Positions 33,741 through 64,000 of a DNA stretch of 64,000 nt are shown here, in pieces; within the stretch, counting starts at the first letter, position 1, and every line of letters starts with the position of its first letter. The notes beneath the pieces were generated by a model. The model was not told the DNA's origin. It saw nothing but the letters and a program-made list of their open reading frames with translations, and did not search any database. The position numbers were made by a program, and so were the translations under genes. The stretch is from Gammaproteobacteria bacterium (lineage in GTDB: Bacteria > Pseudomonadota > Gammaproteobacteria > SZUA-229): contig JAPHRO010000042.1 of NCBI GenBank assembly GCA_026195895.1, forward strand, positions 19,086 to 83,085, given 5' to 3'.

Positions 33741-35765
33741 TTAGAAATCAATCATTCCAGTGGCTTTTCTCATGATAACAACCAGATCGCCTACATTAAA
33801 TTGACCATCAGGCGTGGGTACGCCGCTTATGAGTGGTGCGACATCTCCGTGAGCTAACTGTTCTGATGTGGGCGTCAGTTGACCACCAAGTATTTGCTGG
33901 GCAATAAGAATATCAACTACATTAACAATACCATCATTGTTAATGTCACCATCTGGCGAAACAGGAACAGAATTTAAATCTAGAGGATCACTGCCCGCAG
34001 CCACCTCTTCTCCATCATTGTAGCCATCACCATCTGTATCATAATTAAGTGAATCTGTTTCGCCTGCATCTACCACTCCATTCGCATTGATATCTTCTGC
34101 AATATCCAGCAGGCCATCATTGTCATCATCAGTATCGGCATTATTACCTGTACCGTCGTTATCAGTATCAGTGGTTTCTGTTGCATCTAATGGAAATGCA
34201 TCAGCAGCATTGGCTACGCCATCGCCATCTATATCATTATCACAAACATCACCTATTGCATCACCATCCAGATCTGCCTGATTAGCATTGAAAATGCTCG
34301 GGCAGTTATCCTGTACATCTGAAATAACATCACCATCAATATCTGATGCAATATGCCATGCTAAGGCATAATCCCACAGAAAATCACTCTGACCTGTTTT
34401 AGGTAGCACCTGGAGCAGATAATCCCTTCCAGCCGGTAATGATGTCCAGATATTTTCAGTATTATCAACGCTGCTTGTTGAGCTTATTAATAATGTTTGA
34501 CTGCCTGTTATGTCATACAGCATAAGATCAAGATCATAAATGGAAGAAGTACCATTAAAATTAAATTTATTTCCACCCGCAATATCAATATTCCAGGCCA
34601 GTGATGCTTTTAATATTTGTGGATTAGTACCCGTTGAGAAATAGTAGGAAGCAACATTATTGCTACCACTCGAACCACCAAATGAAGGATCATAGTCAAA
34701 TCCAAAGGTTCCAATGCTACCTGCACTAGAACCATCATCCTCGGCACTGTTTTGTTCACCGGCCGCTATGATGTGATAGCTATTATAAACATTAACCTGT
34801 CCCGCACCAAAACGCGCATCTAACCCGTTAGCAGTTTGATTTAGCTCTACTCGGTAATCAGTAATATTTGCCGTAGTACTGGTATTTTTTGTTAAACGAT
34901 CAGCCCCTGCAAGTAACGCAGCTTTTATAGTTTCTGACCTTTCTGCGTTGTAAATAGTATCGCCATTACGATTTGAAGTTGAACCATTTGAAAGACCAGG
35001 ATTAGAATGCCCTGTTTCTATTAATATTGCAGCTGTTGCAGCAACCACAGGTGTTGCATTACTTGTCCAGGCGAAAGGTGCAACGATCTCGGTACGTGTT
35101 CTGCCCGCAACATAAGTTGAATCGATCTGTGCAGAACCCGTGCTGTGTAAGCCATCAGTTTTTCCAACTGTCACCACATTATATGCAGCGCTTAGTAGAT
35201 TAGAATTTATTCCAGTACTATTTTTTGTACCCACAAACTGTAAAAATTCATCCGTTTCAATAACCCAGTCAAGTCTTCTTAAAATATCTGAGTCATAGCT
35301 CAAATTACCGGTAGCACCTACCCAGCTATGATTCCCAATACGACTTGTGGAAGATATTGGCTGCCAGGAAGACCCAAATCTCAAATAATCTGCCTGTAAC
35401 CAGTTATTTACTTCATAAACATAAATGTTGATAACTCCATTTGCCATGGCATAATTGCCATAAAAAGTCCCTCCTACACCAGTTGCATGTGCAGATGGCG
35501 CATCATTTAAATTGCTGACATTTGTGATTATTTTCCCAGTAAAACGTGTGTCAGTGATATCAGGAAAATATAAATATGGAGAACCGACAACACCATCGGT
35601 ATCTGCCTCAGCCTGACTAACAGTGACACTGTTACCATTGGGTAAATTTATACCTAATTCTGTTGCCAGTTTTGTGTGACCGATATCATCCTTATAGGCA
35701 TAGGAAAGACCGCTGTGGAGTAGCAATAAACAGCTAATGACAATGATACAAGCTCGATCAAACAT
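33741..35765 (-). CDS. secreted subtilase-like (S8) protein with thrombospondin-type-3 Ca-binding repeats and two C-terminal dockerin-like repeats
   Basis: It has a signal peptide. Subtilase-like motifs are SAHATGVGG (His), NHSWVG (Asn) and WTSNATPVVAATAAIL (Ser). A long D-x-D-x-D run (DGDAIGDVCDNDIDGDGVANAAD...) gives the TSP3 repeats. DINNDGIVNVVDILIAQQIL and GDLVVIMRKATG are dockerin-like. Confidence 0.55.
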   Translation of the reverse strand: MFDRACIIVISCLLLLHSGLSYAYKDDIGHTKLATELGINLPNGNSVTVSQAEADTDGVVGSPYLYFPDITDTRFTGKIITNVSNLNDAPSAHATGVGGTFYGNYAMANGVINIYVYEVNNWLQADYLRFGSSWQPISSTSRIGNHSWVGATGNLSYDSDILRRLDWVIETDEFLQFVGTKNSTGINSNLLSAAYNVVTVGKTDGLHSTGSAQIDSTYVAGRTRTEIVAPFAWTSNATPVVAATAAILIETGHSNPGLSNGSTSNRNGDTIYNAERSETIKAALLAGADRLTKNTSTTANITDYRVELNQTANGLDARFGAGQVNVYNSYHIIAAGEQNSAEDDGSSAGSIGTFGFDYDPSFGGSSGSNNVASYYFSTGTNPQILKASLAWNIDIAGGNKFNFNGTSSIYDLDLMLYDITGSQTLLISSTSSVDNTENIWTSLPAGRDYLLQVLPKTGQSDFLWDYALAWHIASDIDGDVISDVQDNCPSIFNANQADLDGDAIGDVCDNDIDGDGVANAADAFPLDATETTDTDNDGTGNNADTDDDNDGLLDIAEDINANGVVDAGETDSLNYDTDGDGYNDGEEVAAGSDPLDLNSVPVSPDGDINNDGIVNVVDILIAQQILGGQLTPTSEQLAHGDVAPLISGVPTPDGQFNVGDLVVIMRKATGMIDF

Positions 35766-35821
35766 ATTAAAATAACTTTTTATAATTTAGATTGTCTATA
35801 CGACTAAAATCATTCAATGCA

Positions 35822-36445
35822 TTAATATCTTACTTTTAATCTACGTCGGCTCATTGAAAATAACCCCAGCAATCCAGAACCGAATAACCACACAGAAGCT
35901 GGCACAGGTACCGCACTAACCTGCATAGTCATCTCTACAGTCATTCCCTGATATGGACCTGCAGTTTGCATCGAATCCCAAACAAGCTCATAACTCCATT
36001 CATCCAGGCTTGTTACCGTGGCATTGCCGCCAATACTATACTCACCTATATAATCATCTCTTGAATTCCAGTTGGCAAACATTGATGTCATATCTGCTGT
36101 CATGGTATTCAAATCAATACCTGGTGCACTTAATCCTGTTAAACGATCTATCTCACCATCTTTTCCCGATGGCGCAAAATACGTATAAAGATCAATATCT
36201 AAATATTGAAATAATTCAATACCAGCATTAGTAGCCAAACTGTCCGTGCCTATTGCACTGGCACTCCCATCAAACACACCATCAGTAAAAGTACCATTAC
36301 CACCAAACACAACGGGCACACCATCATTTGGACTACCTCCAGTAGGTTCAACTACATTCATTGTCCCCCCAAGCACGCTCCATGTCGCAGCATTAGAGAT
36401 AGGAGTAATTATTATTAATACAAACATAAATATTATTTTTATCAT
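35822..36445 (-). CDS. secreted protein with VPxPA-type PEP-CTERM (VPLPA-CTERM-like) sorting tag
   Basis: Has a signal peptide. C-terminus AVPVPASVWLFGSGLLGLFSMSRRRLKVRY = motif + TM helix + Arg cluster, the exosortase-substrate architecture. Confidence 0.75.
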   Translation of the reverse strand: MIKIIFMFVLIIITPISNAATWSVLGGTMNVVEPTGGSPNDGVPVVFGGNGTFTDGVFDGSASAIGTDSLATNAGIELFQYLDIDLYTYFAPSGKDGEIDRLTGLSAPGIDLNTMTADMTSMFANWNSRDDYIGEYSIGGNATVTSLDEWSYELVWDSMQTAGPYQGMTVEMTMQVSAVPVPASVWLFGSGLLGLFSMSRRRLKVRY

Positions 36446-36518
36446 TTTTTATTCCTTTTTTGTTCGCGGTTTATTTTAAATTAATTTATTATTTGCTTTC
36501 TTCTGCTGCCTAATCAAA

Positions 36519-37421
36519 TTACTGAAAATACTCCATGATTGGTGTTAATACTATTTCACTGCCATTGACATCATAGATAGTCGAACTAAGCAATGTAAGA
36601 TTAGGCGAGGAACTCAAGCCTCGTGGATGGAGCACATAAATTTTTAAATAAGTATGATCAACCCCCTGTGGCGCAACAACATCAATAAACAGTTGATCCC
36701 CATTCTGGCGCCAGTAAACCATACGCTGTGTTTTACCAAATGCTCCTGTATTTGAGACTGAACCTCGTACTGTTGATTCTGGAACATAAATATTAATATC
36801 GTCTGGATTTAAAACAGTCTGATCAAAATCAATAACAAGCGAAGCGGCTCCAATCTCAATTCCATCATCAATGCCAAAGCTGATTTTAGCATGGGGTGCC
36901 GGTTCTAATTTTGTAAAATCTAATGCCAAATCAAGTGTTAGTGATTTACGCCAAAAGCTATCGTCAACACCAACACCAGGAATTATTTCCAGATTAATTT
37001 TATATGGTGCAGCAATACCTGAACTATCGTCATTCTTAGCGGGATCAACCGTCAAGTATGCACTTCCTGCAGGAACATTAGCGGGTATATCGACAACCAA
37101 AACAGTCTGCACAGGCTCATGCCCATTAAACCATGAAAAATAACTATCTATATAACGTGAATAATGTGTACCTTCAGCACGACCGTCAGCGCGTAGATTA
37201 AATACAGAACGCACCAAACCCAATGCCTGTAAATCCCATTCCGTTTCGTTAATATCTGTTAGAGTAACAAGCGTCGTTTCTTTACGAGCATTCTCAGACC
37301 CCCCAATCATTGCTGAAACCGTATCACCAGCACGCGCTACGGTTGGGAAAGTATTAACACCCGCACAGCCCTGTAATATCATTATGAGCATCACACCCAA
37401 AGCTGAAATAAACTTTATCAT
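36519..37421 (-). CDS. lipoprotein of unknown function (no C-terminal sorting tag)
   Basis: Lipobox ILQGCAG. A 300-aa beta-rich protein located between two sorting-tag genes. Confidence 0.5.
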   Translation of the reverse strand: MIKFISALGVMLIMILQGCAGVNTFPTVARAGDTVSAMIGGSENARKETTLVTLTDINETEWDLQALGLVRSVFNLRADGRAEGTHYSRYIDSYFSWFNGHEPVQTVLVVDIPANVPAGSAYLTVDPAKNDDSSGIAAPYKINLEIIPGVGVDDSFWRKSLTLDLALDFTKLEPAPHAKISFGIDDGIEIGAASLVIDFDQTVLNPDDINIYVPESTVRGSVSNTGAFGKTQRMVYWRQNGDQLFIDVVAPQGVDHTYLKIYVLHPRGLSSSPNLTLLSSTIYDVNGSEIVLTPIMEYFQ

Positions 37422-37670
37422 TATAAATCCTCGACTTTACCTGGCGCAGCAATCGCTAAATATGTGACAAATGAAAAACATATCATTAGGAAGTATTTAA
37501 ATGCATTTTGGTACACGTGCTGATTCTTGAACAAAAAAAGCTTCATAAATTCAATCTAATTACAATTGCAAAATTCATACCCATATGAGGTTATCTATAG
37601 TTATCAATCAGTTGGATAATAAGCTATTAATACCCATGCCATAAAAGTAAATAGTTTCGACAACAATAAG

Positions 37671-37700: not shown

Positions 37701-37732
37701 GTCCTTTTTTATACTTATTAATCAAATATTAT

Positions 37733-39148
37733 TTAATTAAGCTTTTTTCTTCTTGCTGCTCCAATTAAGCCTATCAATCCAGATCCGAACAACCAAACTG
37801 CCGCAGGTACAGGCACTGCACTAAGATCCTGAACAACTACACCTTCAAGGTTGACAAAATCACCATCAGTATTAAATGCGGATGCAGGAATACCCGACAT
37901 ATCACCATATTCAGTAAAATCAATTGCGTCAATTATGCGTAACCCATCGGCACGTAATATAAACCCATAACCTGAAAAAGCATTATTATGCAGCACAACA
38001 TTCTCCATCACCTCACCCGTTCTCGTATCGATTGCTTCAACAAAATCACCATTAGCATCATAAATCGCTTCTATATAGATTTCGTCAGCTGCATTAAATA
38101 CTTCGTCAATATTTTCCTGATGAGAAACAGTCAATGTAGAAGCATCGTATGTAGATGTATCTAAAAGACGAACAAAGACTCTACCTGGCACTGAACCGCC
38201 CCCCATAAAGGAGACCTGGTTATAGAAATCCTCATCAACCCCTGCTCCACCGACTTCATTCAGGCCCGTCGCAGGATTTACTGCGCCCGCTGTAGGATTG
38301 GTATTATTTACAACTGCATCAGCAGTGTAAGTATAGGTGGAACCATCTGGAAACTCAGTTTCAATAGTTAAGGAACCATAACTGCGCATCTGAAAATCAG
38401 GAACAATCTGCAGCGCCCCTTCACCTGGGGTGCCATCGCCTTCAAGACCCACCCTGCCCATATATGATTCAAAAGCAAAATCAAACTGAACCTGCCCGGC
38501 CATTGCCTCCAGCGCACCTGGATTGCTTGCAGTTACTGAACCACACCAGCCAGTCGCATCTGATAAGGCATACGGTTTAAATTGAATCGCCGTATCATAA
38601 GTACCATCGTCAACAAAGCGAGGATAACCAGCGGTTTCTGGGTCTGGGTCGGGATTGTTTAGATCCATCGTATATTCAAACGTACGATAGTATTCAAATG
38701 ACATGTCTTCTCGCCTAACCAGATAATCACCATCATAATCAATTTGCATATTATTGAACGTGGAGCCAGCAACAGTTGTATAAGCCTTATCATAAAAATT
38801 AACCTGTGAGTCCATACTCGCATCAGTATAAATTTCAGGATAACCATTACTAAATGTATAACCTGCATCAGGCGTTAAGCCATCTGGCCCGGTAGTTACA
38901 ACATGCTGAATTTGGCCTACACCACCGGTAGGATCAAGAGTATTTCCTTCAGCCAGACCACCAAAACCATTAACTGAACCGAAGTCCATTGCGGTACGAC
39001 CATCTGGACCAGCATAACCCCAGTCATCAAAAGTTGCGGTACCATTAGTGATAGACGTCACCCATACTTCGGCATTTGCTGCACCATTTGCTGATAACGC
39101 CAATAAAATAGCAAATTGAATTTTTTTTATCTTATTTAATTTCATCAT
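37733..39148 (-). CDS. secreted 471-aa protein with VPxPA-type PEP-CTERM sorting tag
   Basis: Has a signal peptide. C-terminus LSAVPVPAAVWLFGSGLIGLIGAARRKKLN. Confidence 0.75.
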   Translation of the reverse strand: MMKLNKIKKIQFAILLALSANGAANAEVWVTSITNGTATFDDWGYAGPDGRTAMDFGSVNGFGGLAEGNTLDPTGGVGQIQHVVTTGPDGLTPDAGYTFSNGYPEIYTDASMDSQVNFYDKAYTTVAGSTFNNMQIDYDGDYLVRREDMSFEYYRTFEYTMDLNNPDPDPETAGYPRFVDDGTYDTAIQFKPYALSDATGWCGSVTASNPGALEAMAGQVQFDFAFESYMGRVGLEGDGTPGEGALQIVPDFQMRSYGSLTIETEFPDGSTYTYTADAVVNNTNPTAGAVNPATGLNEVGGAGVDEDFYNQVSFMGGGSVPGRVFVRLLDTSTYDASTLTVSHQENIDEVFNAADEIYIEAIYDANGDFVEAIDTRTGEVMENVVLHNNAFSGYGFILRADGLRIIDAIDFTEYGDMSGIPASAFNTDGDFVNLEGVVVQDLSAVPVPAAVWLFGSGLIGLIGAARRKKLN

Positions 39149-39522: not shown

Positions 39523-40212
39523 TTAAGCAGCTTTACGACGACGCGCAACACCTGCCAGGCCAATCAGGCCAGAACCGAACAACCATACTGCTGCTGGAAC
39601 AGGAACTGCAGCTACTACACCTTCAAGATGCAGACCATAGCCAAAGCCTGAGAAACCACCTGATGGTACGATCGCCTGGTAATCAAGAGTAAAAGTATCA
39701 CCTACAGCACAATCTACCGCACAAGTCAGAGTCGCGTTAGCGCCGGCACCCATATCGATAGGACCGTCTTCTCCAGCGGCTACGTCACCCCACCATACAG
39801 TCCAGCCAGACATGTCGATTGAAGCAGTGGCACCAGAAGCTGAAGCAATAGTCAGTCCATCAGCATCAGAAGTGTAGTGCTCACCTGGGTTACCACCAAA
39901 AGACCAAACCAGATCAACTTCACCGCGAGCTTGAGCTGAACCCAAAGTAATACCATTAGCAGCATTTGCGATAATTACACGCTCTTCTTGAGCTAAAGTG
40001 CCATCGCCATTTGTATCCATTACAAAGTAACTGCCACCTGCTGTAGTAGTCGCACCAAAAGTACAGGTAGGATAAGTACCACCAGCCTGACATGCGCCAA
40101 TACCGTCATCAAAGTTAAGAACTGCATCAGATGCCAGTGTTGCGTTTGCGTTGCTGCTTACACCAGCAGTTAAAGCCAGAGCCACAGCTGAGCCAAGAAA
40201 TTTTTTATTCAT
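39523..40212 (-). CDS. secreted 229-aa protein with VPxPA-type PEP-CTERM sorting tag; its N-domain is paralogous to gene 42382..44232
   Basis: C-terminus VVAAVPVPAAVWLFGSGLIGLAGVARRRKAA. The N-domain DAVLNFDDGIGACQAGGTYPTC...MGAGANATLTCAVDCAVGDTFTLDYQAIVPSGGFSG aligns with the N-terminus of the 616-aa protein. Confidence 0.75.
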   Translation of the reverse strand: MNKKFLGSAVALALTAGVSSNANATLASDAVLNFDDGIGACQAGGTYPTCTFGATTTAGGSYFVMDTNGDGTLAQEERVIIANAANGITLGSAQARGEVDLVWSFGGNPGEHYTSDADGLTIASASGATASIDMSGWTVWWGDVAAGEDGPIDMGAGANATLTCAVDCAVGDTFTLDYQAIVPSGGFSGFGYGLHLEGVVAAVPVPAAVWLFGSGLIGLAGVARRRKAA

Positions 40213-40283: not shown

Positions 40284-40300
40284 AAGCAACGCCCGTGCCA
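40284..40300 (-). promoter_or_regulatory. sigma-54 (-24/-12) promoter for sorting-tag gene 39523..40212
   Basis: Reverse complement reads TGGCACG-ggcg-TTGCTT, a perfect match to the TGGCACG-N4-TTGCW consensus, about 70 nt upstream of the start codon. This is consistent with control by the sigma-54 activator PrsR. Confidence 0.6.
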
Positions 40301-40745
40301 TTTCTATTTTTATTTGTATTTTCAATGACTTATAAAATCGATCACATTTCCAGCCTGGTAAACACCATAAAAATGTAAATCTTCCCGACAAATACAGCAA
40401 TTAATCATTTTATATAGCATTTCCGATTAAAAACAATCACTTGGAAAGCTCTCTGAGGGTAATATATAAAATATTGAACAGCTGTTTTGTATATTACTGC
40501 ATACGATCTGGTCAATTTTTGGCCATTTTTATGAAAAACTTACACCAGGAAAAAGAAAATAGTGTAAATAATACTGACAAGCCATAATTAAATCGCATTC
40601 TACTGAGCCCACACCTTAATAATCGGGTACCAAGGCACCCCTTAATCACTGTCATTAGCTCACCCTGTGCAGAAAATTTACCTCCGGTGCATGATGATAA
40701 GATGGTAATCTGTCGGAAAATAAGCAGTGCTCTACGAAACTTGTA

Positions 40746-41016: not shown

Positions 41017-42339
41017 ATGATAAACAAAAATTTAAAGCTGGTAACCGCCCTTGGGTGCGCACTTGGAATAGCCACGCCAGCATCAGTGTTTGCTACCAAC
41101 GGAATGTTCATGATCGGGTATGGAAATAAATCCCGGGGCATGGGTGGCGTTGGTATTACCATGACTCATGACACACTTGCCAGTGCCGCCAATCCAGCAA
41201 CCATGGCGTTTATTAAAGGGAATCAATTCGATATTGGCGGCGATATATTCAAGGCAAACGCAGAAGCTTCCCTGGGTGAAGATGGTGTTTATCTAGGACG
41301 CGTGACCGTTGAAAGCAAACCTGATCACATGGCGCTTGCTGATGGTCTCTATATGATGCCAAGTCTGGGAGCAAGCTGGAATAAAGGTGATTTAAGCTAT
41401 GGCTTTACCATGGTACCCGTGGGCGGCGGTGGCAGTCGCTATGAACCTAATATTTATAACTCTGTAATTACAGGTGCGCCTACCGATGAAAAAATGGGTG
41501 TCTCACTTATGGTAATGAACATTAATCCCACCATTGCCTATAAACTGGATGAGAATAACAGCGTTGGTGCCACACTAATCATCGGCGCACAAGTTTTTAA
41601 ATCCTATGGCCTTTCATATTTCCAGACATTTACCGAATCAGATTCGCCCGACCATCTAACCGACCAGGGTGCGGATATCGCCTACGGTGCGGGTATCCGT
41701 TTAGGCTGGATGGGCAAATTTATGGAAAATAAACTAAGCCTGGGTGCTGAATTCACCTCACAAACCTATATGAGTAAATTTGACGACTATAGTGAACTGT
41801 TTGCCGGTCAAGGTGAACTCAATACTCCCGGCAATATTGGCCTGGGTGCATCCTATCAATTTATGGACGATTTAACTGTGGCTTTAGATATCAACTACAT
41901 CATGTATGAAGATATTCCAGCTATTGCAAACCTTGGTCCCGGCCAGGGCACGGATGGTGCATTGTATATTACAGGACCAGAAACTAATCAGCTTGGTCTG
42001 GATGAAGGGCTCGGCTTTGGCTGGGGAAACCAGACTGTAATCAAACTGGGCGTTGTCTACGCATACGATACACGCTGGACATTACGTGGTGGCTGGAACT
42101 ATGCCAAAAGCCCGATTCATGAAGAACGGGACATCCTGTTCAGTATGGTTGCACCTGCCACTACCGAACATCACCTGACACTGGGCGCAACTTACCAATA
42201 TGACAAAGATATTGAGCTCAACTTCTCATATGGCCATGCTTTCGAAAATACACAATGGGGGCCCACTTATATTGGTGGCAGCGGTGAAATCTCCATGTCT
42301 ACAGATGCGCTCGGAGCAAGCTTGTCAATGAAATTTTGA
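41017..42339 (+). CDS. outer-membrane beta-barrel transporter of the FadL/TodX/OMPP1 family
   Basis: Signal peptide, then ATNGMFMIGYGNKSRGMGGVGI, typical of the FadL-family N-terminus. The protein ends in an aromatic residue (...MKF). Confidence 0.65.
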   Translation: MINKNLKLVTALGCALGIATPASVFATNGMFMIGYGNKSRGMGGVGITMTHDTLASAANPATMAFIKGNQFDIGGDIFKANAEASLGEDGVYLGRVTVESKPDHMALADGLYMMPSLGASWNKGDLSYGFTMVPVGGGGSRYEPNIYNSVITGAPTDEKMGVSLMVMNINPTIAYKLDENNSVGATLIIGAQVFKSYGLSYFQTFTESDSPDHLTDQGADIAYGAGIRLGWMGKFMENKLSLGAEFTSQTYMSKFDDYSELFAGQGELNTPGNIGLGASYQFMDDLTVALDINYIMYEDIPAIANLGPGQGTDGALYITGPETNQLGLDEGLGFGWGNQTVIKLGVVYAYDTRWTLRGGWNYAKSPIHEERDILFSMVAPATTEHHLTLGATYQYDKDIELNFSYGHAFENTQWGPTYIGGSGEISMSTDALGASLSMKF

Positions 42340-44232: not shown

Positions 44233-44237
44233 AAGCC

Positions 44238-44768
44238 TTGAGCAGAAACACTCTGCTCATCATCAACGGCGCTGCCCTCACCGGCTGCGCCGTTTTTGAT
44301 TATGCCTGGCGTACAACATTAGTGACCAGTTTGATGTTGCTGCTGCCCTTTATTGACCGAACATGGTCATTACCTGAATTTCATATCAATAAAATAAAAT
44401 TGATATTCTGGTCAATAAGCATTGTATCAGGAATATTACTCGTTACATTCAAACCGGATTATGCAACCGCAGCACTTGCTACACTGGTATTAACGGCATT
44501 ACCGGAAGAATGGTTTTTTCGTAGCTATTTTATGATGCGTATTGAAAGAGCAGGATTGCAGCCATACCAAGCCAACATTATTACTTCTCTGTTCTTTGCT
44601 TTGCTTCACCTGCCCGCGCAAGGCTGGTTTGGTTTAAGTGTATTTATTCCATCTTTGATATACGGGTGGATATTTCAGAGGACTAAAGATATTGTGTTAG
44701 TAATTTTGTTACATGCGCTGTCTAATATAGTGTTTTTTATTTATATACGGGACTATCTAAACCTGTAG
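44238..44768 (+). CDS. CPBP-family intramembrane metalloprotease (CAAX-protease/Abi-like), PEP-CTERM-locus type
   Basis: The motifs EEWFFRSYF (EExxxR), LLHLP and HALSNIVFF are the three CPBP signature motifs; 176 aa polytopic. A CAAX-protease-related family is known to occur in PEP-CTERM/exosortase loci. Confidence 0.75.
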   Translation: MSRNTLLIINGAALTGCAVFDYAWRTTLVTSLMLLLPFIDRTWSLPEFHINKIKLIFWSISIVSGILLVTFKPDYATAALATLVLTALPEEWFFRSYFMMRIERAGLQPYQANIITSLFFALLHLPAQGWFGLSVFIPSLIYGWIFQRTKDIVLVILLHALSNIVFFIYIRDYLNL

Positions 44769-52364: not shown

Positions 52365-52781
52365 TTAAATAGTTTCTTTGTAAGCTTTATATGCACGTTC
52401 GATAATCATATTTAATTTCACCAAATCCACCGGCTTGGCAAAAAACTCAAATGCCCCAGAATCAACAGCACGTTTTGCATTCGTTTTCTCATCAGAGCCT
52501 GAAACGATAACTACTTTGGTGCCTGGTGCCTCTTCCAGAATTTGCTTTAATATTGCGAAACCTTCATTGCTGCCTTCAGCATCAGGCGGCAGTCCTAAAT
52601 CCAGTGTCACTACCGCTGGATGGTATTTACTAAACTGCTCCAGTGCATCCGCCCTGTTTTCTGCAGTCACTACATCAAAGCCCTCGAATCCCCACTTTAA
52701 CTGGCTACGGATGCCTGGATCATCATCAACAATAAGTATTTTTGGATTTTCAGCCATCTTGTTTTCTCTTTTCACGCTCAT
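52365..52781 (-). CDS. single-domain response-regulator receiver, paralogous to the PrsR receiver domain
   Basis: KILIVDDDPGIRSQLKWGFEGFDVVTAENRADALEQFSKYHPAVVTLDLGLPPD is collinear with the PrsR N-terminus (VLVVEDDPGLQKQMKWSFEDFEVIV...VATVDLGLPPD). Its start overlaps the prsK stop by 32 nt. Confidence 0.75.
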   Translation of the reverse strand: MSVKRENKMAENPKILIVDDDPGIRSQLKWGFEGFDVVTAENRADALEQFSKYHPAVVTLDLGLPPDAEGSNEGFAILKQILEEAPGTKVVIVSGSDEKTNAKRAVDSGAFEFFAKPVDLVKLNMIIERAYKAYKETI

Positions 52782-55216: not shown

Positions 55217-57625
55217 TTAAATAGTATCTAACAGTTTTTTAGCTTCGTCTTTTCCTATGAAATTTTGATCACTATTTACAGCCATTTCCAGGTGTTTTTT
55301 CGCATTGTTCTTTTCATTATTTTGATACAGGGCGTAACCCAGGTGATATTGAAACACAGCGACTTTAGGCGCTTTTTTTACTACTTCTTTTAATATCTGA
55401 GATGCCTTCTGATTATCACCTGACTTGGCATAAGCCCATCCTAAGGTATCTTGTAATGCTGGTTGTTTTATATTTTCAAAACCCATCGCCAGATCCAGGG
55501 CTTTTTTAACATCACTCTGCGATCCGTAATCTAATAATAGCGCAGCTAAATTATTCTCGGCCAGTTTATTATTTGGGGTTTCTACCAATAATTTATTATA
55601 TGTATTTATTGCATCCTTATAATTTCCATTTCTTTCATACAAGGCTGCTATTTTCATATAAAAAGGCGATTTATTTGAAACTTCAGCAATTGCCTGATTG
55701 TAGACATCAATAGCTTTTGCAACATCATTATCTGCCAGGTATGTAGCCGCTAAATTATTATATGGTATCGCCCAGGTTTTTGAATTACTGATAGCCTTGT
55801 TAAAATAGTTTCTAGCTGTAGGAATATCTTCTAGAAGCATATAAATTTGACCCAACAACAGTTGAGAAACTGCATCAGAAGAATTATTTTCCAATCGTTT
55901 ATTCAAACGAGTAATAGCCTGTTCTGGCTTTTTCTGTATTAAATATACTTTAACTATTTGATCCAATACAGAGTACTTATTATTCGTTTTGTTCAATGCC
56001 TCATCAAACTCTACAATTGCTGAATCAAACTGCCGTTTGGCCAGATGATATTGGCCTTTCTTCATATAAACTTCATATTTTTCTGGTGAGCTACGTTTCA
56101 TAGCATCAATAATTGATAGTATTTGAACTTCATCATTTTTTGCAGCTACCAGCTTAAGCTTAAGATCCAGCAAATCGTAGTTATCTTTGAAATAGGCCAG
56201 TGCTTTTTCTACAACATTAAGCGCGTCATCCTGCCTCTTCTTCTGCACAAGATAATTTGCATAATTAAAATGAGTTTCATGATTAATGGGATTCGACTCT
56301 ATAGCTTTTTTCAACTCATTTTCTGCCAGCGAACTCTCATTATTCATTTCGTGAGCTCGTGCTAATAACAAAGCCGCCTCAGCATTTTTTGGTTCATTTT
56401 TGACAACTGTGCGTAACCCATTGATTGCCGGAACTGCATCAAAATTTCTTAGATGCAATTTCCCCGCAGTTAACAGGGCATCATTATTATTGGGATATTC
56501 ACCAAGCACCTGATCAACATATTTTTTTGCTCCAAAATAATCATTCTCCTCCAGCAAAATAACTGCAAGTTTATTTCTTGCCTTTACTCCTTCAGGATCA
56601 AAAGATTTCTCATTAATTATTTTTTTATAAATATCTTTAGCATCATTTCTTTGCCCAATTCCCTTATGAAATTTCGCCATTGCAAATTTTAACTCATATA
56701 AATCCGGCTTTTGCTGGATAGCCGACTTTAGCTCATTAATCGCTTCTTCAACAGTTACTCTTGACGATAAGAATTCGACAAGAATAAGATAGCGTCGCGC
56801 ATCTTCGTCATCATCTTTTATTCCCTGCCTTAAAACCTGCTCCGCTTTATCTAGCTGACCAGATGTTGCATAGAATGATCCTAATGCCACCTGTAAGCCA
56901 TACTTGTCAGGATCAATATTTATTGCTTCTTTCAGATATTTCTCTGCCAGATCATATTTCCTGTTTTTGGCGTGTAATTTTGCAAGACTAATTCGCAGTG
57001 AAATATTATTTTTGTTATTTTCCACACCACTAGTTAATAATCTTTCAGCTTTCGCGTCTTCTTTATTTGCCAAATATATGCCAGCAAGCAGGCTAATGCC
57101 TTCAACAAGTTTAATATCTTTTCTAACTACAGCCTCAATATCTGCAATTGCTCTTGATTTATTACCTGTTTTATATTCAATAGTTGCTAAAATTAGATCC
57201 GCCTCTGAATTCGCTGGATCCTCTTGTTTTACTTCCTGCAATATTTTATTTGCTTCTGAAATAAATTTTTCAGTGCCGGCAATAACATATATTCTTGCAA
57301 GTTTAATCTTGGCCAATGTATGTTTTTTATCTAATTCAATGACTTTCCTATAATTCCCTAAGGCCTTGCCTAATTCCTGATTCTTTTCCTCCATCTGCCC
57401 CATGTAAAAATAAGCTTCCGCAAATTTTGGATCTATTTGAATCACATTCTTGAATTCAATTTTTGCCTTTTCTAAATTATTTTCTTCCAGATAAGCTTTT
57501 CCTTTTTCCAGGTACTTAACCTTACGTTCTTCCGCTCCACCACATGAAGCCAATACCACCATAATTGATAATATTGAAATTAATTTCGTAATACCCATAA
57601 ATGACTTCATGTATTTCATCTCCAC
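55217..57625 (-). CDS. prsT: PEP-CTERM system TPR-repeat lipoprotein (PrsT family), copy 2
   Basis: Lipobox VLASCGG, TPR repeats throughout the 802-aa protein, paralogous to copy 1. Confidence 0.7.
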   Translation of the reverse strand: MEMKYMKSFMGITKLISILSIMVVLASCGGAEERKVKYLEKGKAYLEENNLEKAKIEFKNVIQIDPKFAEAYFYMGQMEEKNQELGKALGNYRKVIELDKKHTLAKIKLARIYVIAGTEKFISEANKILQEVKQEDPANSEADLILATIEYKTGNKSRAIADIEAVVRKDIKLVEGISLLAGIYLANKEDAKAERLLTSGVENNKNNISLRISLAKLHAKNRKYDLAEKYLKEAINIDPDKYGLQVALGSFYATSGQLDKAEQVLRQGIKDDDEDARRYLILVEFLSSRVTVEEAINELKSAIQQKPDLYELKFAMAKFHKGIGQRNDAKDIYKKIINEKSFDPEGVKARNKLAVILLEENDYFGAKKYVDQVLGEYPNNNDALLTAGKLHLRNFDAVPAINGLRTVVKNEPKNAEAALLLARAHEMNNESSLAENELKKAIESNPINHETHFNYANYLVQKKRQDDALNVVEKALAYFKDNYDLLDLKLKLVAAKNDEVQILSIIDAMKRSSPEKYEVYMKKGQYHLAKRQFDSAIVEFDEALNKTNNKYSVLDQIVKVYLIQKKPEQAITRLNKRLENNSSDAVSQLLLGQIYMLLEDIPTARNYFNKAISNSKTWAIPYNNLAATYLADNDVAKAIDVYNQAIAEVSNKSPFYMKIAALYERNGNYKDAINTYNKLLVETPNNKLAENNLAALLLDYGSQSDVKKALDLAMGFENIKQPALQDTLGWAYAKSGDNQKASQILKEVVKKAPKVAVFQYHLGYALYQNNEKNNAKKHLEMAVNSDQNFIGKDEAKKLLDTI

Positions 57626-58022: not shown

Positions 58023-59783
58023 TTAACAGGAATATTCCCTCTCCTCATCACCAATAAATCCTTCACGCAATAAATAAAGCATAATTTCCTGCGCGGCCTC
58101 CATTGGGGCTATATCAGTAGTATCAATTCGAAGCTCAGGAATTTCCGGTGCTTCATAAGGATCACTAATACCGGTAAACTGTTTTATCTCTCCCTTTCGA
58201 GCCCTGGCATACAATCCTTTACGATCACGTTTTTCACATTCTTCTAATGGAGTCGCCACATGAATCTCTATAAACGCGCCATATTTTGCATTTTGTTCAC
58301 GTACATATTTTCTTATTGCAGTATAGGGTGCTATTGGGGCACAAATTGCTATACCACCGTTTTTGTTAATAACACTGGCAACATAACCGATTCTTTTAAT
58401 ATTAATGTCTCGGTGTTCTTTACTGAACCCCAGTTCACTTGATAGATAATGACGCACAACATCACCATCGAGCAGTGTTACCGGTCTCTTGCCCTCTTCT
58501 ATGAATTTTGAATAGATTATTTTGGCCAGGGTTGATTTTCCGGAACCCGATAGCCCGGTAAAAAATAGCGTTATGCCGGTTTTAGATCGTGGTTTACAGA
58601 TTTTCTTAAGTTCTGAAATAACTTCAGGATAACTAAACCAGCCAGGTATTTCCTGACCCAACTGAAGACTTTCATGGAGCTGTTTATCTTTAAACAGTTG
58701 ACCTTCCAGATTCTGTTCAGTTATTTCTTCAACAGGTATAAATTTATCCAGTTCACTCACATAACGCCTTTCCCTGATCGTCACCATTTCTATTTCCAGC
58801 TCATTCTGATATTGCTGCATTAATTCCTGCGATGCATACTGCTTATAAAATCGTTCCTCGCCCTGCCTTACATTAGGGGGTGCTGCATGCTCGGAACCGA
58901 TAATAATATGTGAACAACCATAATTCTGCCGGATGATGGCGTTATGAATAGCCTCTCTGGGTCCTGCCATACGCATAGCCTGGGGCAGCAGGGACAACAT
59001 CACCATATGTCTGGGATAATGTTTCTGTATCGCCTGATAACACTGTACTCGGGTGTGATATTGCAAATCCCCCGGCTTACTCAAACCGACGACCGGGTGT
59101 AATAATATATGCGCGCCTACTTCCTTCGCCGCCTCAAGTGTAATATCCCGATGCACCCTGTGCATTGGCTTACTGGTACCAAACGCGACTACACGCCGCC
59201 AGCCATGTTTTTTAAACAAATGACGTAGTTCTTCAGGCGTATCTCTGAGAGTTTCAAAATCATAATGTACTGGTAACTGGATGCCTTCGACAGTACCGCC
59301 GATATAGTATTCCTTAACCTGGTTCAGCAAATAATCAACACCGGGATGATGTTCTGATGTGGTTCCATACACCGCCTCAGCTTCAGCACGTTTATCCGCC
59401 TTCCAGATATCTTCTACATGCAGTACCGCTAGCATAAAACCCTCAGGGTCCTGCAAGGCGATACTGTCACCAGGACTCAATTGCTGTACCTGCTTTGCAT
59501 CCACATCAAGGGTGATGGGTATAGTCCACAACAATCCACTAGAGAGACGCATAGACGATAGAACAGAGTCATAATCTTTTTGCGTCATAAAACCTGTTAA
59601 CGGACTTAACGCACCGTTTAACAGCATTTCAAGATCGCAAAACTGGCGTTGGCTCAGAGTGATGGAATAATAGTGCTCAGACTCGTGCTTAAGAACTTCT
59701 GCTCGCTCAGGACTACAGATTAGATTTACCAGCTCACCGCCATAAGGTTTTACTAAAGTTGTCATAAATAAGTTACCAAACAA
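58023..59783 (-). CDS. bifunctional sulfate adenylyltransferase (ATP sulfurylase) / adenylylsulfate kinase (PAPS synthesis)
   Basis: N-terminal ATP-sulfurylase domain (QTRNxxH-like HRDITLEAAKE...GPREAIHNAII). C-terminal APS kinase with P-loop GLSGSGKST and LDGDVVRH. Confidence 0.8.
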   Translation of the reverse strand: MFGNLFMTTLVKPYGGELVNLICSPERAEVLKHESEHYYSITLSQRQFCDLEMLLNGALSPLTGFMTQKDYDSVLSSMRLSSGLLWTIPITLDVDAKQVQQLSPGDSIALQDPEGFMLAVLHVEDIWKADKRAEAEAVYGTTSEHHPGVDYLLNQVKEYYIGGTVEGIQLPVHYDFETLRDTPEELRHLFKKHGWRRVVAFGTSKPMHRVHRDITLEAAKEVGAHILLHPVVGLSKPGDLQYHTRVQCYQAIQKHYPRHMVMLSLLPQAMRMAGPREAIHNAIIRQNYGCSHIIIGSEHAAPPNVRQGEERFYKQYASQELMQQYQNELEIEMVTIRERRYVSELDKFIPVEEITEQNLEGQLFKDKQLHESLQLGQEIPGWFSYPEVISELKKICKPRSKTGITLFFTGLSGSGKSTLAKIIYSKFIEEGKRPVTLLDGDVVRHYLSSELGFSKEHRDINIKRIGYVASVINKNGGIAICAPIAPYTAIRKYVREQNAKYGAFIEIHVATPLEECEKRDRKGLYARARKGEIKQFTGISDPYEAPEIPELRIDTTDIAPMEAAQEIMLYLLREGFIGDEEREYSC

Positions 59784-59826: not shown

Positions 59827-61446
59827 TTAAAACCCTCTAACAGCCACAATAGCCAAAACACTCAAGATACTTAGCCTGATCAAAGCCCATCGACCCGATA
59901 TTATATTTAACAGGGTTTCAGACGCATAAAATAAAACAATTAATCTAAGCGCCATTTCACCAATATGGCCTTCTTCAAATCCCATATCAGGTATATTGGG
60001 CACCACTATAACCAGCGACACCACGAGATAGTCTAACGGCGTGACCTGGAATGACTTATCCACCGAAAACCTGACTCGAAGCGCAAAGGCAATCGCTAGA
60101 AGCACAAACACATAATTAAGCATTTGACTATATTGCGGCTTGACAACATCAGTATCCAGCAAAAGATAAACAGCCATAACACAAACAATATAAACAATCG
60201 CCTTTTCGATAACTGTCACCTTGCCTCGGGCCAATAAAATATTAATGATAAACACTGCAAGTAAAATGGCTGATAATACTGCGAGGTCAGAATGAACTAT
60301 CTCAGAAAGCAAAACAGTAGCTAGCAACACCAGTGGCACACCGACTTTTAATAACCATGTCGGCCCTGCAGTAAGCCAGCCGGAATCACGCATTCTCCTG
60401 ACCAAATTCCTGAGTGCGGATCCCTTCTCTACATCCGATTTATGAAACTTCCATTTCTGCCTGTCGGCAATGTAGAAAAATGACAGCACGAGCAAACTAA
60501 ATGACAAATAACTTAGCAATAGCAATAAGTCCGATTCATACCGCAGCACATAAGCTGATACAATCAGTACAGACTGGACAATATAAATCAACATGACCGC
60601 TTCGTAATGGTCAAAGCCAAGAGCGAGTAATTTATGATGTATATGATTTTTATCGGGTGAAAAAGGTGACCGCTTTTCATAAATTCGTTGCGACATTACG
60701 GCTACCGTATCGAGTATTGGCAAGCCCAGAATTATCAGGGGCAGAACCGGGCTCATTGCAGTATTAACATTCTGGGTTAAAATAATTGCTAATACACCTG
60801 CGCTAAATCCCAGGAATTGACTTCCGGTATCGCCCATAAATAGTCTTGCTGGATAAGTATTATGCCGCAGGAAACCAAATATCGAACCCGCTACGGCCAT
60901 ACAAACCAGTACAACATTGACACCTTCCGCCTGCAATGCCAGCAGGCCTATAGCACATAAAGAAAGCAATGTCGTGCCACCCGCAAGACCATCGAGTCCA
61001 TCGGATAAATTTATTGCATTGGTAATACCAACAAGTGCAAATACAGTAAATGGAATCGCTAGTGCATCTGGTAAATCACCTACAAATGGCACTATTCTCA
61101 GAACGACATCACCATAAATCACAACGATAAGAACCGCTATAATCTGACCCAGAAATTTTATTTTATAATCCAGATCGCTACGATCATCCCATATACCAAA
61201 GAAAAGTAAGACAAGAAAACCCGCCAGCAAACTGATGATTTGATTGTCAAATTCAGCCCATAACACAATTGATAAAACAGAGCCAATAAGCATGGCAATG
61301 CCACCTACCCGAGGTATGGCACTGGTATGCACTTTGCGCGCATCAGGTAAATCTATTGCACCGATTTTATCCGCCCATTTCATAATAGGCGGTATTAAAA
61401 TCATAGTGACAACTAAAGCCACGAAAAAGCCAAACAGAAACAGCAT
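59827..61446 (-). CDS. MraY/WecA-family (GT4) polyprenyl-phosphate sugar-1-phosphate transferase with a long C-terminal membrane extension
   Basis: DLPDARKVHTSAIPRVGGIAM and the DDxxD-like IWDDRSDLD motif. 539 aa with about 11 or more TM helices. Confidence 0.7.
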   Translation of the reverse strand: MLFLFGFFVALVVTMILIPPIMKWADKIGAIDLPDARKVHTSAIPRVGGIAMLIGSVLSIVLWAEFDNQIISLLAGFLVLLFFGIWDDRSDLDYKIKFLGQIIAVLIVVIYGDVVLRIVPFVGDLPDALAIPFTVFALVGITNAINLSDGLDGLAGGTTLLSLCAIGLLALQAEGVNVVLVCMAVAGSIFGFLRHNTYPARLFMGDTGSQFLGFSAGVLAIILTQNVNTAMSPVLPLIILGLPILDTVAVMSQRIYEKRSPFSPDKNHIHHKLLALGFDHYEAVMLIYIVQSVLIVSAYVLRYESDLLLLLSYLSFSLLVLSFFYIADRQKWKFHKSDVEKGSALRNLVRRMRDSGWLTAGPTWLLKVGVPLVLLATVLLSEIVHSDLAVLSAILLAVFIINILLARGKVTVIEKAIVYIVCVMAVYLLLDTDVVKPQYSQMLNYVFVLLAIAFALRVRFSVDKSFQVTPLDYLVVSLVIVVPNIPDMGFEEGHIGEMALRLIVLFYASETLLNIISGRWALIRLSILSVLAIVAVRGF

Positions 61447-61459
61447 GAGTTACGGCCTA

Positions 61460-63049
61460 TTAGTTGGCTACATATTCGGGAATTACAGGGGCGATTTCCC
61501 TGCAAAAACTTTCCAGGCGTTTATCCGCAATAGAAATATCCTGCCCCGGTCTTAGCATCGTAGTTAAGCGCATCAATGCACCATCTGTTCGGCTTTTGGT
61601 CATTGCATCCCAGAATAAATACCACTTCATCATGTACTCATTGGTAACAATACGTCCACGCTGCTGGAACCAGTAGTAAACTAACTGTTTTATCTCACCT
61701 TTTTCTATCACCAGGCGATTAACCGTCATCGGAATATTGCCAATATTCAGACCCTGAATAGTATGATTTTCAAGACTGGTTATACGCCAGCCACCACCGG
61801 GAATACAGGAACGGGGGGAATGCGCAGATGCGCCTTTTTTCTGTGAAGCATAATAAGCCGAATAAAAATTAACACTTCCGCCATCCTCACCAACATAGTC
61901 AATCATTGCGTAATCAGAAAACTTCAGAGCATCAATATAAATTTGCTCCAGATAGCCAGTTTTACCAACCCAACCATCAAACTCTAGCGGGAATTCTACA
62001 TATTGTTTCCTGTCAGGGGTTATTTCTTCGCGATCTGGTAACGCAAACACACTGGCCGCCACTAGAACTATTATTGCTAAAGACGCATAGAACGGTTTCG
62101 GAATTTTACGGTAAATAATTTCAGAATCACTGGGTGTCGGCTCAGGAAAATCCAGTCCGAATGCTTCCCGCAACGGGAGTTTGTCCTTACCCAAACTCGC
62201 CAGAATCCACATTTCCAGAATCAATATAGCAATACAGCTCATAAACACGGCCCAGCCTTCAAAATCATGCAGAAAGCCTTCTGCCATTTCTGGCCCCCAA
62301 TATTCTACTGTTACACCAATAGCGCCAATTCTGAAGCTATTCATTAAAATAGTAATGGGGATGGAGGACAAAAAGATAATGGTTTTTTTCCAGAGTGCGC
62401 CGGTAAAGAAATACGCAGATATAAACGCAAGTGTCATTAGCGGAAACAAATAATTCAGGCCACTACATGCCTCAACAACCTGAAGCTTATATACGCCTAA
62501 ATCTATGACATTACCTTCGAGAAAAACACTAATATCAAACAGGCGGATAACAGCTACGCCAATTTGAGATGAGATAAGCTGGAGCTGTGACGATAAATTA
62601 TAGAAGAGGAAATTGGGTAATGGAATCATAAATAAAAGTATGACAAGTGGCACAAAAATAATCTTAAATGCCTTGTAACCCATCATTGAAAGGATCACAC
62701 CAAACAATGCTACTAAAAATGCATACTGTATTATTGTATAAATAGAGCTTAGTTCACCGGCGTAAAATAGGAACACCCCCAAAGCAACAACCAATACACC
62801 AATCCACGACCCATGAAATTCGGTGCTTTCAAGTTGATTTTTTTTCTGCCAGATTAAAAATGCAGTGATAACAGGTATTAGATAACCATGCCCATATTCT
62901 TCCCGTTCATTCCACCATTTCACCATCAGAGATAAACCGTCAAGGTAGACGTAGCAGGCCAGTAAAAAAACACCACCTACTAACATCCAGAATATTGCTG
63001 ACTCTCTCCAAATCCTTAACAATTCATTACCTTGTTGTTTAACTACCAT
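61460..63049 (-). CDS. exosortase (EpsH/XrtA-like) with fused C-terminal EpsI-like domain
   Basis: EEYGHGYLIPVITAFLIW (exosortase EEYSHG-type motif) and a catalytic-type Cys in VVEACSGLNYLF. The C-terminal roughly 230 aa after the last TM resembles EpsI-family proteins. Confidence 0.75.
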   Translation of the reverse strand: MVVKQQGNELLRIWRESAIFWMLVGGVFLLACYVYLDGLSLMVKWWNEREEYGHGYLIPVITAFLIWQKKNQLESTEFHGSWIGVLVVALGVFLFYAGELSSIYTIIQYAFLVALFGVILSMMGYKAFKIIFVPLVILLFMIPLPNFLFYNLSSQLQLISSQIGVAVIRLFDISVFLEGNVIDLGVYKLQVVEACSGLNYLFPLMTLAFISAYFFTGALWKKTIIFLSSIPITILMNSFRIGAIGVTVEYWGPEMAEGFLHDFEGWAVFMSCIAILILEMWILASLGKDKLPLREAFGLDFPEPTPSDSEIIYRKIPKPFYASLAIIVLVAASVFALPDREEITPDRKQYVEFPLEFDGWVGKTGYLEQIYIDALKFSDYAMIDYVGEDGGSVNFYSAYYASQKKGASAHSPRSCIPGGGWRITSLENHTIQGLNIGNIPMTVNRLVIEKGEIKQLVYYWFQQRGRIVTNEYMMKWYLFWDAMTKSRTDGALMRLTTMLRPGQDISIADKRLESFCREIAPVIPEYVAN

Positions 63050-63253
63050 AATAACTAATTAACCCCAAATGTACTGATTGAACCATAAAAAAAATGCAAT
63101 AGTATCAAATTCTTGCGATAATGAATGCATGTAGAGAAAAAAATAATTGAGAATCAATAGATTATCACACTATATTAACATATAAGACCTTTATAATAAT
63201 CTAATAGAACCTGCATATAACTTTAATCCATTTCTAGTAGTTGACATTTCACT

Positions 63254-64000
63254 GTGCACACGATTGACCTTTTCAGGAAATTATTTGTATTACTTCTAAC
63301 GAGAGGTTCCGGCCTTATCCTAACATTTGCAATTAGTCTCTTTCTGGCTCGCATATTTGGTGCAGATATCACTGGTAAATATTACCTGTTTATCTCAATC
63401 CTAACGGGTATGTCCATTATTACCAAGCTCGGCTTTAACAGCACATTAATTAAGTATTGCGCGCACCATTCCATAGTTCAGGAAAAAGAAAACATACGCG
63501 GATACTGGTATACCGCCAACAAAATATCATTCTTCCTCTCTGCCCTTATAATAACTCTGATCATATGTTTAAACGAGCTCGGTGTATTTAGCAGTTTTGT
63601 GAAAGACACCTACCAATTATTTGTCTACGCATGTATTGGCCTGATACCTTTTACAATACTAGGTCATAACATCGCTGTTCTTATTGGACTTAATCGTCAG
63701 GCCACTGCCAGTGTCACCGATACAATTGCACTACCTTCACTTTTCCTGTGCCTGATCGGAATTGTTTACTTCCATGATCCTATTCAGGAGGAAATTCTCG
63801 CACTATACACAGCTGCTTTAATAATAGTATTCATGATCAGCACACTTATATTATTCAAACAGCTGCACTCAAATAAAAAAACCGAACATGCTAACACAAA
63901 GATTATGTTAACCAGGTCCATGCCTGTTCTTGGAATCAACTTAACCAACTTTCTCACAGACTGGAGTGCAACCTACATACTGGCAATATTTGGCACGCTG
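63254..64000 (+). CDS. polysaccharide biosynthesis/export protein (Wzx-like PST-family flippase); 5' part only, runs off the window
   Basis: An open frame from GTG 63254 (in-frame TGA at 63242) to the window end. It reads MHTIDLFRKLFVLLLTRGSGLILTFAISLFLARIFGADITGKYYLF..., the typical N-terminus of PST-family flippases. It is not in the supplied ORF list because it lacks a stop. Confidence 0.6.
   Translation, partial: MHTIDLFRKLFVLLLTRGSGLILTFAISLFLARIFGADITGKYYLFISILTGMSIITKLGFNSTLIKYCAHHSIVQEKENIRGYWYTANKISFFLSALIITLIICLNELGVFSSFVKDTYQLFVYACIGLIPFTILGHNIAVLIGLNRQATASVTDTIALPSLFLCLIGIVYFHDPIQEEILALYTAALIIVFMISTLILFKQLHSNKKTEHANTKIMLTRSMPVLGINLTNFLTDWSATYILAIFGTL

Follow-up and report, generated by a model that had tools for sequence, protein, structure and literature searches.

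The question raised by this locus is which protein-sorting system it encodes, and whether it encodes more than one. The locus lies in a 64,000-nucleotide stretch of gammaproteobacterial DNA, referred to here as the window (assembly GCA_026195895.1, contig JAPHRO010000042.1, positions 19,086 to 83,085 of the forward strand), of which the region from 33.7 to 64 kb was analysed; the right boundary of the locus is beyond the window end. Judged from its sequence, this region belongs to the PEP-CTERM-type exosortase loci, in the VPLPA-CTERM/XrtD subtype, and carries PrsK, PrsR and PrsT. It very probably represents the regulatory and sorting half of an XrtD/VPLPA-CTERM protein-sorting locus associated with exopolysaccharide (EPS), together with a second sorting module. 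The host, in the best explanation of the data, would be an uncultured marine or sediment gammaproteobacterium. The core system is of an already known kind, and automatic NCBI annotation already names XrtD; as a finding, one more uncultured bacterium with a well-annotated type of exosortase locus adds little. It does provide a clean example in which PrsK/PrsR/sigma-54 control is coupled to XrtD, not XrtA, and in which a promoter and a candidate enhancer box are conserved.

The exosortase and the polysaccharide genes are found at the right end of the region:

61460–63049, minus strand: XrtD exosortase with a fused EpsI domain (TIGR04152 594.3 bits, cutoff 400)
59827–61446, minus strand: WecA/MraY-family polyprenyl-phosphate sugar-phosphate transferase of 539 amino acids (aa) (Glycos_transf_4 134.6 bits)
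58023–59783, minus strand: bifunctional sulfate adenylyltransferase/adenosine 5'-phosphosulfate kinase, for synthesis of 3'-phosphoadenosine 5'-phosphosulfate (PAPS) (NF004040 816.9 bits, cutoff 669)
63251–64000, plus strand: 5' part of a Wzx/MOP-type flippase gene, with the frame open to base 64000 (Polysacc_synt 43.0 bits, cutoff 28.2)

Besides TIGR04152, the exosortase signature model TIGR04178 reaches 76.2 bits against a cutoff of 23 over residues 189–283, a stretch that spans the catalytic residues, and the EpsI domain occupies residues 352–526 (TIGR02914 144.8 bits against 42.8; PF11984 206 bits); in Pfam, the protein matches Exosortase_EpsH and DUF3485. The other exosortase models score 295.6 bits for XrtW (cutoff 425), 182.5 for XrtA (cutoff 208) and 92.9 for XrtB. 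The subtype, which an earlier reading of these letters alone (the sequence-only reading) had left to be assigned, is given by these family scores as XrtD, with the next-best XrtW and XrtA falling under their own cutoffs. Cys194, Arg239 and His260 do not vary among 21 aligned homologues, which at 67–100% identity are close relatives, so that this invariance by itself is weak evidence; the three residues agree with the Cys/Arg/His catalytic set reported for EpsH (PMC1569441). A protein of 100% identity from a gammaproteobacterial metagenome-assembled genome is named "VPLPA-CTERM-specific exosortase XrtD" at NCBI; homologues at 68–80% identity number in the hundreds in marine, vent and sediment metagenomes, and among solved structures none is related to XrtD by sequence. 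For the adjoining transferase, the WecA model TIGR02380 gives 171 bits, under its cutoff of 326. The gene order XrtD, WecA-like transferase, PAPS synthase, tetratricopeptide-repeat (TPR) protein, PrsK and receiver is kept in the related locus L001 (related loci are numbered in this way below). Meanwhile, an Rfam search of the window returned no RNA family, and there is therefore no riboswitch ahead of the EPS genes.

An exosortase of this subtype is expected to act on proteins with a matching C-terminal tag, and the window holds three of them, all to the left of the exosortase:

35822–36445, minus strand: 207-aa secreted protein with a VPVPA-type tag at about 35825–35911 (C-terminus AVPVPASVWLFGSGLLGLFSMSRRRLKVRY; TIGR03370 21.0, cutoff 25.35)
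37733–39148, minus strand: 471-aa secreted protein with a VPLPA-CTERM tag at about 37736–37816 (TIGR03370 25.6, cutoff 25.35)
39523–40212, minus strand: 229-aa secreted protein with a VPLPA-CTERM tag at about 39526–39606 (TIGR03370 34.5, cutoff 25.35)

A six-frame scan of the window finds the tag in exactly three open reading frames (ORFs), ending at 35825, 37736 and 39526. Its consensus is AVPVPA(A/S)VWLFGSGL…RR, with motif, helix and basic tail at the extreme end of all three proteins, each of which also has an N-terminal signal peptide. Two of the three tags pass the VPLPA-CTERM model TIGR03370 (34.5 and 25.6); the third, that of the 207-aa protein, fails it at 21.0 and passes the PEP-CTERM models (TIGR02595 18.2 against 16; PF07589 21.8 against 20.7). 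The tag is shared by the orthologues of the 229-aa protein in L002, L003, L004, L009 and L013, and the L006 copy is truncated by its contig; similarly, the tags of L002, L003, L004, L009, L013 and L029 all spell the motif VPVPA, and L028 has the close variant VPIPA. XrtD-dependent cleavage of the tag and anchoring of the three proteins are accordingly proposed, with the 229-aa protein as the sigma-54-driven candidate major substrate of XrtD. As a side observation, L004 encodes an orthologue of the 471-aa protein (772–2382, minus strand; 71% identity over residues 1–438) in which thrombospondin type-3 (TSP3)/dockerin-like repeats replace the tag, and a small cohesin-like lipoprotein is encoded beside this dockerin-ended orthologue.

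Between the tagged proteins and the polysaccharide genes lies the regulatory part of the locus:

52750–54891, minus strand: PrsK, membrane histidine kinase (TIGR02916 750.3 bits, cutoff 300)
50783–52186, minus strand: PrsR, sigma-54-dependent response regulator (TIGR02915 712.7 bits, cutoff 502.6)
47932–50307, minus strand: PrsT, TPR-repeat lipoprotein (TIGR02917 337.2 bits, cutoff 312.2)
55217–57625, minus strand: second PrsT-like TPR lipoprotein (TIGR02917 309.2 bits, barely under 312.2)
52365–52781, minus strand: response regulator made up of a receiver domain alone, paralogous to that of PrsR (matches PrsR profile positions 1–120 only)

PrsK, PrsR and PrsT all score above their curated cutoffs. 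In favour of the XrtD/VPLPA-CTERM reading of the region, these three proteins, XrtD, its EpsI domain and the PAPS synthase all exceed such cutoffs. Every component named in the sequence-only reading, which had listed an exosortase–EpsI fusion, a WecA-like primer transferase, a PAPS-synthesis enzyme, a flippase, the Prs triad and three secreted proteins with a VPLPA-CTERM-like tag, is thus found where it had been placed, including the catalytic Cys and Arg on which the exosortase call had been made to depend; the flippase is a real Polysacc_synt/Wzx-type gene of which the window contains only the first 249 or so codons. That reading had overlooked the second PrsT paralogue and the receiver-only response regulator. 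In L001, a TPR gene occupies the position of the second PrsT-like lipoprotein gene and shares 51% identity with it. The receiver-only gene overlaps the 3' end of prsK, and L001, L002 and L006 likewise have a separate gene for a receiver of 127–130 aa after PrsK; the view of it as a pseudogene remnant of PrsR was rejected on account of this conservation as a separate gene. It probably serves as a phosphate sink or connector. The short DNA repeats D1–D3 in the window reflect the common origin of the two PrsT-like genes.

Control by this triad is suggested by the promoter region of one tagged gene:

40285–40300, minus strand: sigma-54 (−24/−12) promoter of the 229-aa gene (TGGCACGGGCGTTGCT, 72 nt before the ATG)
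40374–40390, minus strand: upstream box TGTCG-N7-TKACA, an invariant block when six upstream regions are aligned

TGGCACGGGCGTTGCT is the only perfect sigma-54 −24/−12 match in the window, and a sigma-54 element is found 52–79 nt upstream of the 229-aa orthologues in L002, L003, L004, L006, L009 and L013. The box stands about 90 nt beyond the sigma-54 element and is probably a PrsR enhancer site; the window has three occurrences of its pattern where 0.15 would be expected. It has been reported that PEP-CTERM genes under PrsR control have a sigma-54 promoter at a mean distance of 71 nt (PMC1569441; Haft 2006), and a sigma-54 promoter 72 nt upstream together with the box therefore fits that architecture. 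The promoter of the 229-aa gene is also consistent with the RpoN-dependent expression of pepA in Aquincola (PMC9850573). The true start of PrsR is probably Met16 at 52141, given that the TIGR02915 profile begins at residue 22. An exact match to TGTCG-N7-TKACA, resembling an upstream activating sequence, is also present at 52153–52169 (minus strand), just before this probable start, and may be an autoregulatory prsR site.

Compared with the XrtA/PEP-CTERM floc system of Zoogloea and Aquincola (PMC1569441, PMC9850573), the locus is alike in having PrsK-PrsR-PrsT, a position beside EPS genes, a sigma-54 promoter about 71 nt before the start with an upstream box, and a small single-gene tagged substrate. 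It differs in its exosortase D, its two PrsT paralogues, its extra receiver-only regulator and its PAPS synthase, the last of which points to a sulfated polymer. Since curation places PrsK, PrsR and PrsT with the XrtA system and the tags match the generic PEP-CTERM models too, the locus could be read as a canonical XrtA/PEP-CTERM system in which VPVPA is merely a local spelling of PEP. Such a reading is scarcely credible, however, when the exosortase scores 594 bits on the XrtD model and 183 on that of XrtA (cutoff 208) and carries a fused EpsI domain, when the VPLPA-CTERM scores of the tags exceed their PEP-CTERM scores, and when the VPVPA spelling is fixed across the relatives.

The XrtD/VPLPA-CTERM type described by TIGR04152 and TIGR03370 is matched in the score far over cutoff, the fused EpsI domain, the Cys/Arg/His set and the tripartite VPxPA tags nearby. 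The locus departs from that type in its VPVPA in place of VPLPA and in being joined to PrsK, PrsR and PrsT, and several observations count against the assignment: one of the three tags is slightly under the TIGR03370 cutoff; the Prs proteins are those curated for XrtA systems; a convincing sigma-54 site was found for one of the three tagged genes only and not for the other two; and no glycosyltransferase, polymerase or export gene for a polysaccharide lies within the window. The last point also bears on the description of the locus as complete, which does not hold, as the window stops inside the flippase gene without glycosyltransferase or polymerase genes; in the relative L001, eight more EPS genes adjoin XrtD. 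No paper on the XrtD/VPLPA-CTERM system itself was found in the literature.

A working of the XrtD/VPLPA-CTERM locus can be proposed from these parts. Sec would export the three tagged proteins, whose signal peptides are visible in the sequences, and the C-terminal helix and Arg/Lys tail would hold them in the inner membrane. As the analogous archaeosortase and sortase suggest, XrtD would cleave at VPVPA by means of Cys194, Arg239 and His260 and would probably hand the protein to an acceptor in the envelope or EPS. From their family membership, the WecA-like transferase would prime an undecaprenyl-linked glycan, the PAPS synthase would provide the sulfate donor, and Wzx would flip the glycan unit. 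Signals would pass from PrsK to PrsR and sigma-54, turning on the expression of at least the 229-aa substrate, and the receiver-only PrsR paralogue would probably tune the flow of phosphate.

The second part of the question concerns a cassette at 41.0–44.8 kb, which the sequence-only reading had overlooked and which is transcribed divergently from the 229-aa gene:

41017–42339, plus strand: outer-membrane beta-barrel of the FadL/Toluene_X family (Toluene_X 72.1 bits)
42382–44232, plus strand: 616-aa secreted protein that ends in a tripartite tag containing a Cys, at about 44119–44229 (tag GCSMSKTSVNARERADWWLVAGFLGLLGLFRLTRNKA)
44238–44768, plus strand: 176-aa CPBP/Rce1-like glutamic intramembrane protease, myxosortase-like (Rce1-like 72.7 bits)

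The protease gene starts six bases past the stop codon of the 616-aa gene. The 616-aa protein contains Big_9/cadherin-like and choice-of-anchor U domains, and over its first 200 aa it shares 53% identity with the VPLPA-CTERM protein of 229 aa (E = 7e-64), a similarity that also appears in the DNA as the inverted repeat I1. The divergent genes thus appear to encode two versions of one passenger domain, each with a different anchor. A lipobox in the signal peptide of the 616-aa protein was considered and rejected, as the N-terminal Cys varies in relatives.

About 30 related cassette loci were collected from gene-context look-ups and a scan of species genomes. They come from uncultured Gammaproteobacteria, including Thiohalophilus, Thioalkalispiraceae, Sulfuricaulis and Muproteobacteria, plus one member of the Desulfobulbia. 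With a hidden Markov model of the tag, 27 loci were found to have a tagged ORF whose end lies 0–210 nt ahead of the protease gene. The tail follows the pattern G-C-[ST]-x-[ST]…(E/D)-R-(A/G)-D-W-(W/L)…G-F… and then a basic cluster, and the copy in the window reads GCSMS…ERADWWLVAGF… before its basic residues; the passengers that carry it are unrelated in sequence and vary in length. When the 46-residue tail was used as the query, 50 representative proteins were found among 1.84 billion, 48 of which have it at the extreme C-terminus, on passengers of 51–1158 aa. The protease, for its part, has E90, E91, R95, F120, H124, H159 and N163 (the motifs EExxxR, FxxxH and HxxxN) invariant in 35 homologues. 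The FadL-like gene precedes the pair of tagged protein and protease in 18 of the 20 loci with enough sequence, PrsR or PrsK adjoins the cassette in eight loci, and exosortase-type tags are found near it in nine sources. In L011, a sigma-54-type promoter with one mismatch (258–273, plus strand) is present 63 nt upstream of the gene for the Cys-tagged protein, which hints that the second module can also come under PrsR/sigma-54 control.

It has been shown experimentally that a myxosortase cleaves a Cys-containing tag (PMC11980579). By analogy with JDVT-CTERM/MrtJ and with MrtX, the CPBP protease most likely removes the Cys tag of the 616-aa protein after modification of the Cys, as myxosortases do. 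The FadL-like barrel, which shows a weak match to PorV_fam (44.8 bits against 90), may supply an outer-membrane step; this is a speculation from its strict linkage and weak PorV-family resemblance only.

Of the systems already described, JDVT-CTERM/MrtJ (Haft 2023 preprint, 10.1101/2023.06.07.544157) resembles the cassette in its single target gene adjoining a small CPBP protease and in a tag with one invariant Cys, a helix with conserved residues and a basic tail, and both are found in Gammaproteobacteria. The two differ in that the protease of the window scores 57.5 on MrtJ against a cutoff of 75; that the JDVT-CTERM model (NF033191) gives no match on the window tag and at best 15.7 against 27, in one relative only; that Asp-Trp stands 14 residues past the Cys, instead of Asp-Pro at nine; and that a FadL-like gene comes first in the cassette, which is often located inside an exosortase/PrsKR locus. 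MYXO-CTERM/MrtX of Myxococcus xanthus (PMC11980579) likewise combines a Cys-dependent tag at the C-terminus with a CPBP core whose catalytic motifs are the same; however, the sequences align over the core only, at 29–42% identity, and MrtX has dozens of substrates and needs type II secretion, whereas the system here has one, rarely two, adjacent substrates.

Two sets of results tell against so close a tie of the cassette to the known sorting systems. None of the NCBIfam CTERM models reaches its cutoff on the Cys tag, and the protease is under all Mrt cutoffs (Mrt_core 68.5 against 100, MrtJ 57.5 against 75, MrtC 62.1 against 195, MrtP 68.1 against 250), so that the analogy with myxosortases is one that we infer; moreover, about half of the related cassettes are not beside PrsK or PrsR. 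The cassette is probably a new variant of the myxosortase kind. The stronger proposal, that it is an undescribed dedicated C-terminal sorting system, sister to JDVT-CTERM/MrtJ and made up of a FadL-like barrel, one tagged protein and a CPBP protease, is an evenly balanced judgement. Such a system would be distinguished by its physical tie to exosortase/PrsKR loci, by a FadL-type barrel as outer-membrane partner (compare PorV in type IX secretion) and by a passenger domain that is the same as the one a neighbouring gene would send through XrtD. The cassette is worth following more than the exosortase locus around it: if the proposal is true, the myxosortases, still a young family, gain a new tag; a single locus connects one passenger domain with two different sorting enzymes; and the FadL-like barrel becomes a candidate for the step at the outer membrane that is missing for the substrates of exosortases and myxosortases.

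Two further genes next to the protease, also overlooked in the sequence-only reading, bear on this interpretation:

44885–45985, minus strand: 366-aa cytoplasmic protein with a class I S-adenosylmethionine-methyltransferase-like fold (AlphaFold2 model, predicted local distance difference test score 93)
46055–47773, minus strand: 572-aa stand-alone LanM-type dehydratase domain (DUF4135 276.6 bits)

The 366-aa protein has no Pfam or NCBIfam match, and its family counts only 23 homologues in 5.8 billion proteins. The top matches of its AlphaFold2 model in the PDB are all methyltransferases, but weak ones (E 6e-5 to 1e-3; template-modelling score 0.3–0.5). The 572-aa protein scores 345.9 bits on the LanM model TIGR03897, with its best stretch at profile positions 2–321 of 932, and matches LicM2 (6st5) at 1.8e-33 over chain residues 143–571 of 979; both the profile and the structure-sequence matches cover the dehydratase part only, and no LanC cyclase domain is found in the protein. 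Both proteins of the pair are without a signal peptide, and their genes, at 33–37% GC, are the most AT-rich of the region. The pair is conserved beside the protease in L002, L003 and L006 and is missing from most cassettes; a recent insertion of the pair was rejected, as it occupies the same place in relatives.

With a LanM dehydratase domain over the TIGR03897 cutoff, with CPBP proteins known in bacteriocin processing and immunity (as in the family name; PMC11980579), and with the CPBP, methyltransferase-like and dehydratase genes adjacent both here and in L002, L003 and L006, the stretch at 44.2–47.8 kb might instead be a lanthipeptide-like modification cluster, in which the CPBP protein serves immunity or processing and has nothing to do with sorting. 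This explanation is distinctly improbable. The cluster would lack a LanC cyclase domain; the short gaps around the genes leave no room for a precursor-peptide gene and contain no small ORF; the CPBP gene lies directly 3' of a Cys-tagged gene in about 27 loci, most of them without the dehydratase/methyltransferase pair; and PADLOC returned zero matches. The last search covered the dehydratase-like, methyltransferase-like, CPBP and TSP3 proteins and found no defence system.

The remaining genes of the region are located among and to the left of the tagged proteins:

36519–37421, minus strand: 300-aa lipoprotein (lipobox LQGC), conserved in the locus (no family match in library scans)
33741–35765, minus strand: 674-aa secreted protein that combines Ca-binding thrombospondin type-3 repeats with a dockerin-like C-terminus and bears no sorting tag

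Orthologues of the 300-aa lipoprotein are found in L002 (64% identity) and L013 (55%). The 674-aa protein matches TSP3_bac and TSP_3 and reaches 20.5 bits on Dockerin_1, under the cutoff of 22.9; it matches thrombospondin structures at 1e-21, and its N-terminal 470 or so aa have no family match. In L002, a protein with the same C-terminal part carries a Peptidase_S8 domain instead and is encoded one gene in from the left end of the locus.

The last part of the question is how the region came to lie where it does. Its left boundary is marked by two features:

33707–33733, both strands: convergent (bidirectional) intrinsic-terminator hairpin with an 11-bp stem that includes six GC pairs
32944–33492, plus strand: DUF7931 gene adjoining the left edge of the locus, membership uncertain (Pfam DUF7931 119.6 bits)

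The hairpin folds well on both strands, with an energy of −19.4 kcal/mol on the plus strand (z −4.8) and −18.7 on the minus strand (z −6.4), and none of 200 shuffled sequences folds as well. An A-run and a T-run stand at its two sides, and the plus strand has the stronger U-tract. The GC content is 46.2% to the left of 33740 and 39.5% to the right, and the mean GC content at third codon positions (GC3) of the genes falls from 0.490 (n = 27) to 0.336 (n = 18; Mann–Whitney p = 6e-7). The bidirectional terminator near 33.7 kb and the AT-richer DNA from there on, both reported in the sequence-only reading, are therefore real, and the composition across the window is not uniform.

From these two observations that reading had gone on to a horizontally acquired island. 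The GC shift stands, and transfer is unproven: there are no mobility marks, and the locus of the relatives is AT-rich too. The fall in GC and GC3 exactly at a convergent terminator is sharp and the left flank consists of housekeeping genes (dnaQ, rnhA, mltD, fumC, purB), which would suit a 30-kb genomic island recently acquired by horizontal transfer, and yet this origin is unlikely. The window holds no tRNA, and at the left boundary there is no integrase, transposase or flanking repeat, the genes there being purB and those for a JmjC protein, a GNAT protein and DUF7931. GC is uneven within the region, where the outer-membrane protein and PrsK genes are core-like at a GC3 of 0.44. The AT-richness of these genes extends to the relatives: orthologues in L002 rank alike by GC3 (Spearman rho 0.92, p = 5e-4), and L005 has TPR and PrsK genes of higher AT content than their neighbours mfd and cheW. 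It is common for loci of surface polysaccharides to be AT-rich when no recent transfer has taken place. In addition, L002 also has a DUF7931 gene at the edge of its locus, a 47%-identical homologue directly beside it, and the genes further left differ. The shared AT-rich pattern and the DUF7931 neighbour in relatives indicate that any transfer would be old, preceding the split of these lineages. The composition of the left, 'core' half of the window has an outlier of its own: a small ORF at 2198–2593 (plus strand) has a GC content of 32.6% and a GC3 of 0.235 and stands apart from its neighbours.

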